Source of the DNA: Octopus vulgaris
Taxonomy: Eukaryota
Direction of reading: 5' to 3'
NCBI GenBank assembly: GCA_951406725.2
Contig: OX597817.1
Location: forward strand, 124,062,001 to 124,126,000
Length of the DNA stretch: 64,000 nt
The notes under the pieces were generated by a model. It ran no database searches, was not told where the DNA came from, and saw only the letters and a list, made by a program, of their open reading frames with translations. Position 1 is the stretch's first letter, and every line of letters starts with the position of its first letter. The position numbers and the translations under genes were made by a program. Below, piece by piece: positions 6,508-61,661 of this stretch.

Positions 6508-7040
6508 TTATAAATAGCACATATTTTGGTTAATGTTGACATTATTACCCGGAAACGAAATCGGAAAAAAAAAAGTAAAATGGGTGTAAAAAAAGGTATA
6601 GAAAACGAATCTGAAAACAAAAATGTGCGGAGAGCAGCGGGGTGGGGTGGGGCGAAGGCGAGGCCTTCAGAAAATTCACAAGATCCGATGTTTTTTTCAT
6701 AACTTTTAAGAAAATTGCTTTTTTTTTTAATGAAATTTTATATAAGCACCTTTCAGACGGTATAGATTACAATTATAAAGAAATTTGTGGGGAACATCGT
6801 TTCCGAGGGGTAAGGAGAGGACTTTGGAAAATTCACAAGTACCGATGTTTTTCCCTCATAACTTTAAGGAAAATGGATATCTTTCTACTTCACACCAGCG
6901 TTGGAAACGAATCTGAAAGCAAAAATGCGTGGAAAGCAACAGGAGAGGACTCTGGAAAATTCACAAGATTCGTTAGATCCGAGTTTTCCCCTCGTAACTT
7001 TGAGGAAAATATAATCCTTTTGAAATCACAAATTAGGCTT
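6508..7040 (+). repeat. Foldback-like repeat with internal subrepeats (AAAATTCACAAGATCCGAT...ATAACTTT), left copy
   Basis: Reverse-complement matches to 11620-11920 and 12513-12605. Confidence 0.7.
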
Positions 7041-7186: not shown

Positions 7187-7308
7187 GAAGACATCTCCGA
7201 AAGGGGGTGCCTGCCTCGTCAAAACGGTAGAGGAGTAGGGGCCGAAACCAGACGTGGTTCCTCAAGGAGCTGTTGTGGTAGCAGACCACGAAACACGGTT
7301 GTAATTCC
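7187..7308 (+). repeat. 5' copy of the terminal direct repeat (lacks the 32-nt catalytic-box segment)
   Basis: Aligns to 11003-11158 except that 11082-11113 is missing. Confidence 0.93.
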
Positions 7309-7579
7309 TCAGATACTGACTGCAGGGAAAGATTTGCTGACAATCCAGAAAGAGGGATGACAATGTGGGGAGCCGTTTGACAGTACGACGGCGTAACGAA
7401 GGATCAAATGGGCTTGCAGCCCGATCCGGGATATAATTGCAACGAAAAAACATGGAAAATCATGCGCCCATGATCCCGGACCACGGGGGGGGGGATAAAG
7501 AATCAAATAGGGACGGAAAAAACGAAATGGACTTGGACCGGAAATGGATAATGAGAAAGGAAACGGTATAGGAATGGTA

Positions 7580-10500
7580 GATGAGGAGTTCAGCTGCCGC
7601 GGAAAGGTGTTTGCTAGTTACATCGGGCTGAGAATCCACCAAAGGAAGGTGTGTCAGAAGAAAGTAATTTAACAACGCGGGTTGATAAACCATATGACGT
7701 GTGGCCAGAACCCCCTGGAAAATAACCATAGCGAGGTTCATTCCACAGTTGAATTGGAACAGTAAAAAAAGACTGATAGGCGTGAAGAGGACAAAGATTA
7801 AGTGGCCGAAAGCAAATGACGCAGCGAGTTATAAAAAAATTGACGACGAGGTAGCAAGAATGACCATCAAATTCAAAGGCGACGACGAACAAAAGCTCGA
7901 AAACCTGACTAATACAATCTACTAGGAAGGAGAGAAAAGATTTGGACTGGAAACAACAGGGAAGGTAGAATCAACGGCAAAGCGCGGACCATCGAGGAGA
8001 GAAAGACGGATCGCAAAGATTCGAGAAGAGAAGAAAAACTCAGAACCAGATGGATGTATGCAAAGGAGGAGGAAAGAGAAGGGCTAAAGCAGCTATATGA
8101 AGAGATAAAAATGAGGCATCGAGAGCTGCTAAGAAAACAAAGAAGGAGGAGCAGAAGAAAGGAGAGAGAGAAAAAACTATCGTAGCTTTGTGAACAATCC
8201 CTATCAATATGCGAAACATCTATTTACTGAAAGTAAAAGCGGAAAATTGGATTGCACGAAAGAAGAGCTCGAACAACATCTGAAAGAGACATACAGTGAC
8301 TCTGACAGAAATGAAGTACTCCCAGAAATACACGGACTGAAGAAACTACCTGAACCAAGAGTGCCATTTGATTTGGGTGACATCAAACGGAAAGAAATAG
8401 ATGAGTTCATATGAAAAGCAAGAGCAAAAAGTTCACCAGGGAACGATGGAGTGAGCTACAAGGTATATAAATATTGTCTGAAATTACGTTTGCAGCTGTT
8501 TGCACTGATAAGAGAAATGTGGAAGTAGAAAGATGTAGCGGAGCGATGATGTATAGCTTAAGGTATCTATCTACCTAAAGAAAAAGAGGCAAAAACACTA
8601 GGTCAACTTAGACCAATTTCACTATTAAATACTGACGGGAAAAATCATGTTTGGAATAATTGCTAGACGTACAGCATAACGGGTACCTTAATGAAGCAAT
8701 CCAAAAAGCAGGAATCCCTGGGTGCATAGAACACGCATTTGCCATCTTGGAAGCCATCACCTGTGCAAAACAAATGAAGAAAAAGCTGTATATTGTTTGG
8801 CTAGATCTTGCCAATGCTTATAGATCTGTCCCGCAGGCAATAATAATAACAGCGATGGACTTCTTTTGGATTCCAAAAGATGTTCAACGAATGTTCATGT
8901 CGTACAACGACAACCTGAGGATGAGATTTACAGCAGGAAAGTTCACAACGGAGTGGCAACGGCTTGAAATAGGTATTGCAGCCGGATGCACGATATCAGT
9001 CATCTTATTCGTGCTAGTCATGGAAATGTTACTTAGATCTACAAGCTGTGAGAAAGCTGTTACAAAGATACCATTAAGGGCTTTTATGGACGACGTAACT
9101 ATATTATTGCAAAGTAGAGAAGCAGCAGAGGGAACGTTAGAGCGGTTGGACGAGCTGATAGGATGGGCAAGGATGAAATTCAAAGCCAAAATATCTCGAA
9201 GCGTGGCTTTCGTGAAAGGAAGGCAAGAAGAAATAAAATTCAGGATAGGAGGTGAAGACATACTAACGGTGAAAGAACAACCAGTAAAGAGTCTCGGCAG
9301 ATGGTATAGAGATTTATTAAATGATAAGAAGCAAGGGAAAGAAACACACGAGTAGAACAAGGATTAAAGGCAATTGACAGATCAAGGCTGCCGGGAAAAT
9401 TCAAATGTTGGATACTGCAATTTGGGCTGAACCCAAGAATAATGTGGCCATTGCAAATGTACGAAATAGTCTCGAGTAGTGTAGAAAGGATGGAATAAAG
9501 ATGCAGTGTGTTTATCAGAAAATGGCTTGGTCTGCCGAAGCCACTGAATACAAATGCACTATATGGAAAACCCGTGCTGCAACTACCAATAACATCAATC
9601 GCCGAAGAATATAAGGCAGGAAAGGCAAGGACAGTAATGATGCTAAGGTATTCAAAAGATCAGAGCATCCGCGAAAACTCCCCAAAGGTACGAACAGGGA
9701 GAAAATGGAAGGCGGAAGAGGCAGTAAACAGGAAAACTAAGGCATGCAGATATAGTCGGAGCGAGGCAAGAAACAAGAACCGGCCTAGGGTCGCAAAATT
9801 TCAGGCCATTTTGCAAGAGCAGTATAAAAGAGATGAAAGAGGCAGTATGCGAAGTGAGAAAGGAGGAAGAAGAAAGGCGAAATGTACATTTGGCGCAATG
9901 CAGTCAACAGGGACAGTGCCTGAGATGGGAGGAATATGTGATCAACCGCAGAATATCATGGAAGGAACTTTGGGCTTGGGAGCAAGCAAGAACATCCTCC
10001 CTGATCAAGTCTACCTTCGACGTTCTACCCTCACCGGCGAACATAAAAACAACCGATGAGTGTAGATGCGGAGAGAAAGCGACGGTTAGATATGTTCTGT
10101 CAAATTGCAGACTAGCACTAGAAAGATATACATGGCGGCATAATCAAGTACTCGGCGTCATAAGCGCAGCATTCAAGGAGAAGATCGAGAGGTACAATAG
10201 GGGAGAGTACCCAAAAATAGAAAAGCGCAGTAAAGTATACTTCCACAAGGAGGGAAAAGGATATAAAACCAGGCCTACAAGTAAAGTATACGAGATAGAC
10301 GAAAGATGGAAGGGATACTGGGAGGTGGCCACGGACTTGGAAAGACAAGTAATATTTCCACTAAAAGAAACAACAAAAAGACCGGATTTAGTCCTATAGA
10401 ACAGAGACCGGAGAATAGGAATTTTACTAGAACTGACAGTACCTTGGGAAGAGAACATCGGCAATGCAGAGGAACGAAAGGAGAAGAGGTACGAAAAACT

Positions 10501-10711
10501 AATCAAAGAATGCAGAGAACAGGGATGGAATGTTGAATATTATCACATGGCAGCGGGGGCTAGAGGCTTCATTGAAAAGAAAATGACAACGCTTTTCAAA
10601 AGAAGATTTGTTTTTTCTAGCTCCGAGCTGCGAAAACTAATAAGAAGAGTACAGGAGGCGGTCGAAAAAGCCAGCTTCTATATATGGCTGAAGCAGGAAG
10701 ACCGAAAATGA
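7580..10711 (+). pseudogene. RT-RLE polyprotein pseudogene (several stops and frameshifts)
   Basis: N-terminal zinc finger SCRGKVFASYIGLRIHQRKVC (~7592-7654); RPISLLN; QKAGIPGCIEH; WLDLANAY; GIAAGCTIS; AFMDD; CRCGEKATVRYVLSNC...RYTWRHNQVL; RPDLVL...ELTVPWEE...RKEKRY; ASFYIWLK. FMDD and YTWRHNQVL are typical of Hero-clade proteins. Confidence 0.92.
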
Positions 10712-11042
10712 CTTGAAAGTCATAACACGCCGGCGGGAAATAACATCATTAGGTGAGACAAGCTAACACTGAATCAGCTTCGCTGACTGACAGGTGACGG
10801 TCGTTTAGAGAATGCGCGGGCTAAAACTACGCGCCTTCACTAGCCACGTGACAACTTGCTGGGGCTGTCTGCTGGAGCCCAGCGGCAGGCATTTAAAGGG
10901 AAAAATTTGACAAGTCAGTCAGTCACCGGTTGACACTCGCTGACGATACATCGAAGAGGCCAGGGAACAGAAGAAAGAAGACATGCACCCAACACCAGAG
11001 CTGAAGACACCTCCGAAAGGGATGGGGGCCGCTACGTCAAAA

Positions 11043-11094
11043 CGGTAGAGGAGTAGGGGCCGAAACCGGACGTGGTTCCTCCTGATGATGTCTT
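11043..11094 (+). ncRNA. Putative hammerhead ribozyme, non-circularly permuted topology
   Basis: CGG-UA (11043-47) pairs with A-CCG after GAA (11062-68). GAGGAG (11048-53) pairs with UUCCUC (11076-81), which directly precedes CUGAUGA (11082-88). GUCUU (11090-94) pairs weakly with GGGGC (11056-60). Confidence 0.65.
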
Positions 11095-11102
11095 GAGCTA
11101 AC

Positions 11103-11159
11103 TGGATCCGATGAAGTAGCTGTTGTGGTAGCGGACCACGAAACACGGTTGTAATTCCA
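11103..11159 (+). ncRNA. Putative second hammerhead (type I, U4-to-C variant)
   Basis: UGGAU-CCGAUGA-[irregular stem II AGUAGCUGUU GUGGU AGCGGACCAC]-GAAA-CA cggu UG-UA-AUUCCA. Confidence 0.4.
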
Positions 11160-11619: not shown

Positions 11620-11920
11620 TAAAAGGTATTTATATACAATTTCGTTAAAAGACACCCATTTTCCGCAAAGTTACGAGTGAAAAACATCGGATCTTGTGAA
11701 ATTTCCGAAGTCCTCTCCCCTACCCCCTCGGAAAAGAATTTCCCCACAAATTTCTTTATAATTTTAATCTATACCGTTTGAAAGGTATTTATATACAATT
11801 TCATTAAAAAACTCATTTTCCTAAAAGTTATGAGGGAAAAACATTGGATCTTGTGAATTTTCTGAAGGCCTCTTCCCCCGCCCATTGCTCTTCGCACATT
11901 TTTGTTTTCAGATTAGTTTT
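11620..11920 (-). repeat. Foldback-like repeat, inverted counterpart of ~6600-6880
   Basis: For example GGATCTTGTGAATTTTCTGAAGGCCTC is the reverse complement of GAGGCCTTCAGAAAATTCACAAGATCC (6660-6686). Confidence 0.75.
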
Positions 11921-40614: not shown

Positions 40615-41069
40615 ATCATCATCATCATCATCATCATCGTTTAACATCCGTTTTCCGCGCTAGCACGGGTTGGACGGTTCGACCGGGGTCTGGGAAGCCA
40701 GGGGCTGCACCAGGCTCCAGTCTGATCTGGCAGAGTTTCTACAGCTGGATGCCCTTCCTAACGCCAACCACTCCGCGAGTGTAGTGGGTGCTTTTTACGT
40801 GCCACCTGCACAGGTGCCAGGGGGGTCCGGCATCAGTCACGATCGGCTGGAGCTTTTAACGTGCCACCGGCATGAAGCCAGTCAGGTCGGCGCTGGCAAC
40901 GGCCATGTTCGGATGGTGATTTTTATGTGCCACCAGCACAGAAGCCAGTCGGGGCGGCACTGGCAACGGCCACGTTTGGATGGTGCTTTTTATGTGCCAC
41001 CGGCACAGAAGCCAGTCAGGACGGTGCTGGCATCGGCCACGTTCGGATGGTGCTTTTTATGTGCCACCG
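40615..41069 (-). mobile_element. RTE-type 3' UTR/tail with ~58-bp GTGCCACCGGCAC subrepeats and (GAT)n end
   Basis: Reverse complement of the family at 46020-46370. Confidence 0.85.
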
Positions 41070-43838: not shown

Positions 43839-46371
43839 TCAGAGTGTAAGTACTTTGAGAGAAAAGTTGAACCTAAGAAGTGTCAGTTGTGGTGTGCAAG
43901 AGAGACGGCTGCGCTGGTATGGTCATGTGACGAGAATGGCTGAAGATAGTTGTGTGCAAAAGTGCTACACCCTAGCAGTTGAGGGAACCTGTGGAAGAGG
44001 TAGACCCAGGAAAACCTGGGACGAGGTGGTGAAGCACGACCTTCGAACTTTAGGTCTCACCAAGGAAATGACTGAAGACCGAGTCCTATGGAAGTGTGCT
44101 GTGCATGAGAGGACCCGGCAGGACTAGTCAGGCCATATCCCGTGGCCCCTACCTGGGACGTAGTCGATCCACCTGTGCATACCTTCCTTCTTGTGACACT
44201 TGTGAAGACCTGCTGAGGCAAGTGAAAATCAATCAAAATAGATGAACATCAATGGAATTTGTATCTTTGTGGTACCAGTGCCTGTGGCACACAAGAAAAC
44301 CATCCGAACGTGGCCGTAGCCAGTACCGCATCGACTGGCCTCCGTGCTGTGGGAACATGGTGGCACATAAAAACACCATCCGAAGACCCGGCAAGACTAG
44401 TTAGGTCATAACCCGTGGCCCCTACCTGGGACGTAGTCAGTCCACCTGTACATACCTTCCTTCTTGTGACACTTGTGAAGACCTGTTGAGGCAAGTGAAA
44501 ATCAAAAATCAAAACAAATCAAAATAGATGAACATCAATGGAATTTGTATCTTTGTGGTACCAGTGCCGGTGGCACACAAGAATCCATCCGAACGTGGCC
44601 GTAGTCAGTACCGCATCACTGGCCATCGTGCTGTGGGCACATAACAAACACCATCCGATCGTGGCTGTTCGCCAGCCTCATCTAGCACCTGTGTCAGTGG
44701 CACATAAAAACACCATCCGAAGACCCGGCAAGACTAGTCAGGCCATAACCCATGGCCCCTACCTGGGACGTAGTCAGTCCACCTGTGCATACCTTCCTCC
44801 TTGTGATACTTGTGAAGGCCTGTTGAGGCAAGTGAAAATCAAAAAAATCAAAATCAAATCAAAACAAATCAAAATAGATGAACATCAATGGAATTTGTAT
44901 CTTTGTGGTACCAGTGCCGGTGGCACACAAGAGAAAACCATCCGAAAGTGGCCGTAGCCAGTACCGCATCGACTGGCCTCCGTGCTGTGGGCACATGACA
45001 AACACCATCCGATCGTGGCCGTTCGCCAGCCTCATCTAGCACCTGTGTCGGTGGCACATAAAAACACCATCCGAAGACCCGGCAAGACTAGTCAGGCCAT
45101 AACCCATGGCCCCTACCTGGGACGTAGTCAGTCCACCTGTGCATACCTTCCTTCTTGTGACACTTGTGAAGACCTGTTGAGGCAAGTGAAAATCAAAATC
45201 AAAATCAAAACAAATCAAAATAGATGAACATCAATGGAATTTGTATCTTTGTGGTACCAGTGCCGGTGGCACACAAGAGAACCATCCGAACGTGGCCATA
45301 GCCAGTTCCGCATCGACCGGCCTCCGTGCTGTGGGCACGTAACAAACACCATCCGATCATGGCCGTTCGCCAGCCTCATCTGGCACCTGTGTCGGTGGCA
45401 CATAAAAACACCTTCCGAAGACCCGGCAAGACTAGTCAGTCCACCTGTGCATACCTTCCTTCTTGTGACACTTGTGAAGACCTGTTGAGGCAAGTGAAAA
45501 TCAAATCAAATCAAAATAGATGAACATCAATGGTATTTGTATCTTTGTGGTACCAGTGCCTGTGGCACACAAGAAATCCATCCAAACGTGGCCGTAGTCA
45601 GTACCGCATCGACTGGCCATCGTGCTGTGGGCACATAACAAACACCATCCGATCGTGGCCGTTCGCCAGCCTCATCTAGCACCTGTGTCGATGGCACATA
45701 AAAACACCATCCGAAGACCCGGCAAGACTAGTTAGGCCTTATCCCATGGCCCCTACCTGGGACGTAGTCAGTCCACCTGTGCATACCTTCCTCCCTGTGA
45801 TACTTGTGAAGGCCTGTTGAGGCAAGTGAAAATCAAAATGAAATCAAAACAAATCAAATCAAATCAAATCAAAACAAATCAAAATAGATGAACATTAATG
45901 GAATTGTATCTTTGTGGTACCAGTGCCGGTGGCACACAAGGAAACCATCCGAACGTGGCCGTAGCCAGTACCGCATCGACTGGCCTCCGTGCTGTGGGCA
46001 CGTAACAAACACCATCCGATCGTGGCCGTTTGCCAGACTCATCTGGCACCTGTGTCGGTGGCACATAAAAACACCATCCGAGCATGGCCGTCTGCCAGCC
46101 TCGTCTGGCACCTGTGTCGGTGGCACATAAAAAACACCATCCGAGCGTGGCCGTTTGCCAGCCTCGTCTGGCACCTGTGTCGGTGGCACATAAAATCACC
46201 CACTACACTCTCGGAGTGGTTGGCGTTAGGAAGGGCATCCAGCTGTAGAAACATTGCCAGATCTGACTGGACTGGTGCAGCTTTCGGGCTCCCCAGACCC
46301 CAGTTGAACCGTCCAACCCATGCTAGCATGGAAAGCGGACGTTAAATGATGATGATGATGATGATGATGAT
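43837..46371 (+). mobile_element. 5'-truncated RTE LINE with tandemly amplified 3' UTR and (GAT)n tail
   Basis: ORF end RRLRWYGHVTRM...GRGRPRKTW...TRQD* (stop at 44127); the tail ends GGACGTTAAATGATGATG. Confidence 0.92.
44112..46200 (+). repeat. Tandem array: six units starting at 44112, 44385, 44722, 45076, 45420 and 45716, then ~60-bp subrepeats
   Basis: Each unit restarts at GACCCGGCA(A/G)GACTAGT; spacings are 273, 337, 354, 344 and 296 bp. Confidence 0.95.
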
Positions 46372-57164: not shown

Positions 57165-57413
57165 TCATGGCCAGTGCTGGTGACATTTAAAAAGCCATTC
57201 CATCCATGCCAGTGACACATAAAAGGCACCCATGCCAGTGACATGCAAAAGGTACCCATGCTGGTGACACATAAAAAAACACCCACAACGCTCTTGGAGT
57301 GGTTGGCATTAGGAAGGGCGTCCAGCTGTAGAAACCAAGTCAAATTGTCTAACGGTTAACCTCTAAGCCATGCCAGTATGGAAAATGGATGCTAAATGAT
57401 GATGCTGGTGATG
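57165..57413 (+). mobile_element. RTE 3' tail with short subrepeats
   Basis: GGAGTGGTTGGCATTAGGAAGGGCGTCCAGCTGTAGAAAC...AAATGATGATG. Confidence 0.75.
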
Positions 57414-61137: not shown

Positions 61138-61250
61138 TATATATATATATATATATATATGTATATACCATTCCAGCATGGAAAACGGGTGTTAAATGAT
61201 GATGATGAGATATATATGTATCTATCTATCTATATACATAGATACATATA

Positions 61251-61320
<70 letters not shown>

Positions 61321-61336
61321 TATATATATATATATA

Positions 61337-61400
<64 letters not shown>

Positions 61401-61585
61401 TATATATATATGCATATATATATATATATGCATATATATATATGTATATATATGCATATATATATATATATATATGCATATATATATATATATGCATATA
61501 TATATATATGCATATATATATATATATATATATATGCATATATATATATATATATATATGCATATATATATATATATATATATGC

Positions 61586-61661
<76 letters not shown>
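61138..61661. repeat. (TA)n/(TATGCA) microsatellite with a short RTE tail tag at 61169-61208
   Basis: Directly visible. Confidence 0.93.

Follow-up and report, generated by a model that had tools for sequence, protein, structure and literature searches.

A HERO-like retrotransposon family of Octopus vulgaris with 5' overruns and a hammerhead-like motif in its 3' untranslated region

The element in the window and its relatives

We analysed a stretch of 64,000 nucleotides of Octopus vulgaris DNA (the window; assembly GCA_951406725.2, contig OX597817.1, positions 124,062,001 to 124,126,000 of the forward strand), in which positions 7187-11158 are occupied by one copy of a long interspersed nuclear element (LINE). 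The copy begins with a second, partial version of its own 3' end, joined to the 5' leader at a junction that is fixed in the family. The features of this copy are the following:

7187..7308, + strand: 5' overrun, in which part of the element's 3' end appears a second time (122 nt; 154 nt before a private deletion)
7225..7263, + strand: putative ribozyme-core remains in the 5' repeat (CGGTA cut site at 7229, strands of stems I and II, GAAAC)
7301..7316, + strand: fixed family junction GTAATTCC/TCAGATAC, from 3' end to 5' leader
7526..10711, + strand: single open reading frame (ORF), degraded and with an approximate start; it is collinear with intact relatives, the blocks being 35-72% identical
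8660..9352, + strand: reverse transcriptase (RT) fragment (WLDLA at 8798, GCTIS at 8984, FMDD at 9083)
10061..10438, + strand: presumed zinc-knuckle remnant (CRCG...SNC) and restriction-like endonuclease (RLE) motifs (RPDL...LELT)
10712..11158, + strand: 3' untranslated region (UTR), terminating at the fixed family 3' terminus GTAATTCC(T)

The terminal direct repeats (7187-7308 and 11003-11158) were confirmed where the initial annotation had placed them, and they align in three ungapped blocks with 90-96% identity and spacings of 3816, 3818 and 3850. The same annotation had read an RT-RLE ORF between them. The domains were recovered: the RT matches Pfam PF00078 (E 7.7e-16), and the motifs at 10061-10438, for which Pfam gave no match, are what we take to be a zinc knuckle and an RLE. 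The frame is not open, being interrupted by many stops and frameshifts, and the longest open stretch encodes 231 aa. The window copy is a decayed, dead member of a HERO-like RT-endonuclease LINE family. The element unit is 3,850 nt long in this copy and 3,772-3,971 nt in the other near-complete copies; the unit of 3,818 nt given previously is an artefact of the deletion in the 5' repeat.

A search among longer proteins returned 333 relatives at E<=1e-20, the named ones belonging to molluscs, lancelets, one coral and one sea urchin. Intact relatives encode 1,065-1,373 aa and are collinear with the window ORF, and the solved structures nearest to the element protein are those of R2 proteins (E 5e-47). 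The RT motifs match the HERO-2_DR and HERO-1_BF rows in supplement 6 of PMC5678591, but not those of R2, NeSL, Utopia, CRE or Dong; by this comparison, made by eye, the family appears to be HERO-like. As far as the available text of PMC5678591 and PMC9004415 describes that clade, the likeness extends over the motifs GCTIS, WLDLANAY, P-RAFMDD and EQPVKSLG, the single ORF, the C-terminal RLE and the dispersed 5'-truncated copies. Our family has a single ORF with an RT and the C-terminal motif RPDL...LELT, and its fixed 3' end with variable 5' truncation is the target-primed pattern. The element protein does not have the telomerase-like RT with GIY-YIG endonuclease of Penelope elements; more-than-unit insertions with a ribozyme-like motif in the repeat, a Penelope-type trait, were found. 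Regarding long terminal repeat (LTR) retrotransposons, the repeat varies in length, target duplications are rare and no integrase match was obtained in the seven fragments scanned. Neither the motif nor a relative of the element was found in the viral collection. Among the prokaryote genomes, one bacterial metagenome-assembled genome contig (L212) harbours an 88-codon fragment 42% identical to the RT, which is either contamination or a prokaryotic relative.

Fixed 3' ends, variable overruns and a common template

A word from the 3' end has 604 exact matches, and 90 among the first 100 listed served as the sample of 3' ends; one proved to be a 5' repeat and was dropped, leaving 89 copies (first-pass copies) unbiased as to 5' length. 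All of them terminate at TTCC(T), and their lengths range from 46 to >3,400 nt. The sequence past TTCC continues with T in 71 copies, with TC in 42 and with TCAG, the start of the leader, in six (6/89 vs. approximately 0.7 expected, p 6e-5). Slippage of TCC was observed at 27/89 true 3' ends vs. 0/31 junctions (Fisher p 1e-4), the junction set being one that favours precise junctions. Clear target duplications accompany 5/85 copies (8-42 nt, one of them a microsatellite), and the window copy has none. Another copy (L091) has its 3' end 12-15 nt inside the leader, and an exact flank duplication of 19 bp adjoins it.

For the 5' regions, 40 of 1,232 candidates were scored and 31 regions of 9 kb were examined, to which further copies were added. 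Seven segmental duplicates (L034, L036, L041, L042, L043, L045 and L051 on contig C29), 93-97% identical including the flank, were counted as one insertion. The 3'-end sequence precedes the junction in 31 independent insertions, over 13-1,009 nt, and the longest overrun enters the ORF. The junction was free of insertions and deletions in all 31, with point changes only. Overruns of at least 175 nt are present in 21/31 insertions; the median length is 262 nt for overruns and 375 nt for first-pass copies, and the two distributions overlap. As the 5' edge moves over this range from copy to copy, the repeat has no fixed length, and the LTR-like character formerly attributed to it was not upheld. 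Three copies (L072, L073 and L089) start just inside the leader with no overrun. A relative (L094) also carries 3'-end sequence ahead of its leader, which is 71% identical to that of the window copy.

Approximately half of the junction-bearing copies (L061-L091) have no 3' part within 7 kb. Internal priming was considered for these 3'-truncated copies and rejected, as no anchored target duplication was found at their ends, which were taken as decay. An apparent short 3' extension (L083/L219) was likewise rejected: a 1.3-kb insertion (L083, oriented positions 710-2000) interrupts a 5' junction here, and the case was counted as a junction; the insertion has short inverted ends at a TA and is presumably a DNA transposon. 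Two copies (L066 and L183) harbour an inverted segment within the 3' UTR.

The 5' and 3' repeats of one copy derive from one template. In nine copies with both repeats, and with the hypervariable tract described below masked, 31 out of 103 minority alleles seen in a 5' repeat are also present in the copy's own 3' repeat, where 11.1 were expected from family frequencies (permutation mean 8.4, p 0.003); 13 of the shared alleles are rarer than 10%. Moreover, of five internally deleted copies tested, three (L081, L085 and L088) have their own deletion junction twice, while the overruns of the remaining two do not extend far enough to include it. Together, the shared rare alleles and the doubled deletion junctions indicate that reverse transcription likely exceeded one unit on a template with joined ends. 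Internally deleted mini-units of approximately 360-900 nt that keep both ends were observed in L040, L048, L081, L083, L085, L088 and L235, and their breakpoints differ among the copies compared.

The hammerhead-like motif and the hypervariable tract

The 3' UTR contains a permuted hammerhead-like motif with these parts:

10989..11125, + strand: whole motif (predicted cut after GTA at 11047; GAAA at 11062-65; CTGATGA at 11082-88)
10989-94/11121-25, + strand: outer helix
10995-11009/11089-11104, + strand: helix X
11010-26, + strand: hairpin Y
11027-32/11056-61, + strand: stem II
11032-47/11065-75, + strand: stem III
11048-53/11076-81, + strand: stem I
11019..11032, + strand: hypervariable G-rich tract at the boundary of hairpin Y and stem II (71/71 copies differ)

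The strands follow the order GUH cut site, stem I, stem II, GAAA, stem III, stem I, CUGANGA, with the hammerhead core elements CUGANGA, GAAA, NUH and stems I-III all present; single core deviations were seen in L097, L098 and L060. In the window copy, hairpin Y and stem II are damaged. The predicted cut coincides with the positions that the initial annotation had given (after 11047 and after 7229), and this site is the one conserved in the family. Both GTA and both GAAAC words that it had listed are present, but the second set is not conserved: the older subfamily and several copies have GGA or GAA there, and CCGATGA is a private mutation, as all the other 29 copies compared have CCTATAA or something close to it at that place. 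A second hammerhead made of CCGATGA, GAAAC and GTA was rejected for this lack of conservation. TATAAA was likewise dismissed as a conserved promoter: in the relatives the corresponding stretch forms the loop of a hairpin and varies.

Scanning metagenomes yielded 10 loci, of which eight were examined. The whole motif follows the ORF in four of them (L092, L095, L097 and L098), one (L099) breaks off at the motif start and three end within the ORF. In L034 plus these four relatives the fold covaries in stems I, II, III, X and Y: 121/125 cells pair, and in 12/25 pairs both partners have changed. Pairs were counted from the core anchors because MAFFT misaligned L092. Between L092 and L095, all eight pairs changed outside stem II remain Watson-Crick. 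Folding of L034 alone was modest (z -2.1), as expected for a pseudoknotted core. A search with GTY triplets in the octopus genome gave 24 matches.

The circularly permuted order of Rfam types I-III is not that of the motif, and Rfam returned no hammerhead match at E<=1 in the window or in five loci. The block order is instead the S-G-C order of PMC10085705, in the available text of which the type-SGC motif HRIMA-1 likewise runs from cut site to GAAA to CUGANGA with stem III closing over the core. The differences lie around stem II. The strand on the GAAA side has its partner upstream (GGCCCC/GGGGCC; GGTGC/GCACC in L092; GGTCCC/GGGACC in an older subfamily of the octopus), and CUGANGA is not directly followed, as in type SGC with an insertion of 0-2 nt, by a stem II strand, as judged from the pairing in L095 and L092, which also led us to reject the plain SGC pairing of TGTCTT with GGGGCC. 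The bases 3' of CUGANGA form helix X, which adjoins hairpin Y, itself adjoining stem II, whereas, according to PMC10085705, CUGANGA lies within 1-2 nt of its stems in every known alignment; with these inserted helices the motif is not a plain SGC ribozyme. The linker between the strands of stems I and II is 1-2 nt here and typically 3 nt in that paper. Almost all the motifs of that paper came from metatranscriptomes only, and the genomes of known organisms yielded none of this type there, whereas the present motif sits in a genomic retrotransposon. That was the only paper on type SGC in the literature searched, as far as the accessible texts go.

The predicted cut, 111 nt from the 3' end, was crossed by 85/89 first-pass copies and 25/31 overruns. 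Ends within 111 ± 5 nt were present in only 2/89 and 0/31 respectively; there is no pile-up, indicating that the template is continuous across the cut site and the junction. Summed depth at the cut site was lower in two sequencing runs guessed to be RNA, whose contigs cover the element, than in one of unknown kind, a comparison of contigs that is not interpretable.

The G-rich tract stands out within the motif. Its 13 nt are distinct in 71/71 readable copies, compared to 19 types in 86 and 30 types in 82 for control tracts, and the variability is also visible in the sequencing-run contigs. GGCCCC is retained in only 7/70 copies; the tract is G-rich with scattered A/T and keeps zero to five of the C's. 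It usually differs between the two repeats of a copy, although in L064 both are nearly identical. Where one insertion has been duplicated it varies less, with two identical pairs in the five that are readable, and therefore it probably arises at insertion. In the four metagenome relatives the tract is unscarred. It may be a scar left by strand transfer from an RNA whose 5' end lies near -130, or a site of RT errors specific to this lineage; whatever its cause, a damaged stem II is predicted in most daughter copies.

How the overruns may be made

A ligated unit circle is the best model for the junction, the overruns and the continuity across the cut site. Judging from the sequences, we consider the chances evenly balanced that the ribozyme cuts, the unit RNA is joined into a circle and the RT copies past its starting point. 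A copy with an overrun of approximately 175 nt or longer would harbour two whole ribozymes, and each is predicted to cut after GUH, 111 nt upstream of the 3' end. The ends of the resulting unit of approximately 3.85 kb would re-pair through stems II, III and X and the outer helix, and would then be ligated by the ribozyme or by a host ligase, a step that we infer; host RNA ligases and hammerhead self-ligation are both known activities. Target-primed reverse transcription would begin at the internal TTCC(TCAG) site, and most cDNAs would stop within 600 nt. Those completing the circle would run on and rebuild the 5' repeat, giving the next generation two ribozymes again. The broader proposal, that HERO-like LINEs replicate via a circular RNA made by a ribozyme, and that this hammerhead has a topology not described before (S-G-C, with CUGAUGA joined to stem II via a helical junction), is one we hold tentatively, with the balance tipped slightly to the negative side. 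The unit-length or circular intermediate suggested in the initial annotation is retained at family level, as the best explanation; its route, through a disarmed 5' copy, is not.

Several points weigh against this model. The strongest is the hypervariable tract, which looks like a template-switch scar and is not predicted by a sealed circle. The separation of CUGAUGA from stem II breaks an assumption of the SGC paper, so that activity of the motif is not certain. Eight of the 12 covarying pairs depend on L092 alone, and the register of stem II was chosen by best pairing. The allele-sharing signal comes mostly from two of the nine elements (L063 and L068), with 0/3 in the window copy. The junctions were gathered with junction-containing queries, which biases the set toward precise ones, and the TCAG excess is weaker once TC is given (p 0.037).

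The main rival is a linear RNA with short terminal redundancy, an explanation we regard as unlikely although it deserves serious attention. Such an RNA would start approximately 130 nt before the priming site, inside stem II; the 5' ribozyme, lacking helices X and Y, would stay off, and the whole 3' ribozyme would make the RNA 3' end. The RT would prime near the 5' end, run off, add untemplated bases and transfer to the 3' end via approximately 20 nt of shared sequence, on every pass. The tract sits exactly at the proposed RNA start, mostly differs between two repeats that share alleles elsewhere, and probably arises at insertion, and all overrun observations are explained as well as by the circle. 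By contrast, ends near 128 nt were present in only 1/89 first-pass copies and in none of the overruns, so strand transfer would almost never fail. Moreover, no such scar is seen in the four relatives, and the two repeats of L064 carry almost the same tract.

Uncut tandem or long terminally redundant transcripts could also serve as templates, the overruns being a 5'-truncated upstream unit and the ribozyme merely trimming read-through RNA or regulating the element, like the hepatitis delta virus (HDV)-like ribozymes of R2. This requires no ligation, overrun and first-pass lengths overlap as it would lead one to expect, and SGC hammerheads are slow in vitro (0.007-0.13 per min). We nevertheless think it improbable: the 31 examined regions contain no whole-unit tandem array, the longest overrun is 1,009 nt, every deleted mini-unit would need its own tandem master, and the two repeats should diverge if the 5' one were never rebuilt, yet they share rare alleles.

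R2-type RTs jump between RNA ends. An end-to-end template jump, in which the RT reaches the 5' end of an RNA spanning TCAG to TTCC and moves to the 3' end of another, would draw on that ability, and the ends of a few copies do lie close to the junction (with overruns of 13, 17 and 21 nt, or, in L072 and L073, starting 5 and 10 nt inside it). The prospects of this explanation are poor, as the junctions are precise and free of the slippage of true 3' ends, some 3' ends extend beyond TTCC, and the ribozyme would be left without a role.

The initial annotation had proposed that the 5' ribozyme is precisely disarmed by design, by the loss of 32 nt, and completed in trans by the 3' catalytic strand, and had made recurrence of both the repeat and the deletion the test. 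The 5' repeat recurs, in the 31 independent insertions; the deletion does not. The 32 nt (11082-11113) are indeed absent from the 5' copy, between 7263 and 7264, but the deletion junction has one match in the 2.8-Gb genome with one mismatch allowed, the window copy itself, vs. 1,271 exact intact sites, and the segment is kept in 25/26 5' repeats long enough to span it. The deletion is later decay, private damage and noise. Although it begins exactly at the C of CTGATGA, we give the disarmed-ribozyme idea almost no credence, because the deletion is unique to a dead copy and other copies bear assorted unrelated deletions in the same repeat. The alternative offered alongside it, a leftover 3' UTR with an incidental deletion, was right as to the deletion; the 5' repeat itself is systematic and comes from the same template as the 3' end.

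For Penelope elements, cleavage, ligation and a circular template have been proposed, in the available text of PMC4209133, and they too have direct repeats around one ORF, a hammerhead in the repeat and more-than-unit insertions. Their RT is telomerase-like with a GIY-YIG endonuclease, whereas here an R2-group RT is combined with an RLE, and their hammerhead is a minimal type I that works as a dimer, whereas the present motif is large and permuted. Non-LTR retrozymes are hammerhead-bearing units thought to move via circular RNA and resemble the deleted mini-units of 360-900 nt, but are non-coding, tandem and tied to Penelope elements, according to the part of 10.64898/2026.07.22.740005 available. 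R2 elements share the RT-RLE protein and a ribozyme that processes the element RNA; as described in the accessible parts of PMC13580325 and PMC7650587, that ribozyme is of the HDV-like class, lies at the 5' end and frees the RNA from rRNA, and R2 is site-specific with no duplicated 3' end. The family-level anatomy described here is real and appears to be undescribed so far: the literature searched, which lay outside Repbase entries, the original HERO papers and subscription journals, reports no HERO terminal repeats, hammerheads or circular templates in its accessible parts, and further supplements may bear on this judgement of novelty.

If the circular model is true, the ribozyme-and-circle route proposed for retrozymes and Penelope elements would also be that of an autonomous LINE of the R2 group, whose terminal repeat would be rolling and renew itself, and a LINE would be seen to rebuild its own 5' end each generation. 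It would also mean that eukaryotic genomes encode a ribozyme of the non-circularly permuted kind. As a hammerhead candidate the motif is short and open to direct testing, and it departs from a rule stated for the core. R2-group proteins are in development for RNA-only gene insertion, and one that primes on a circular template would have practical interest.

Around the element, long multi-block inverted repeats (6602-7010 and 11648-11920; 77-97% complementary) bracket the insertion, and by these it seems to lie within a DNA-transposon-like element. Elsewhere in the window, GC-richer tandem repeats at 40787-41069, 44359-46195 and 57204-57276 (periods 67, 354, 296, 63 and 26) have a common GGCACATAAAA-like word, and the overlapping open frames at 61210-61661 are an (AT)n-type array.

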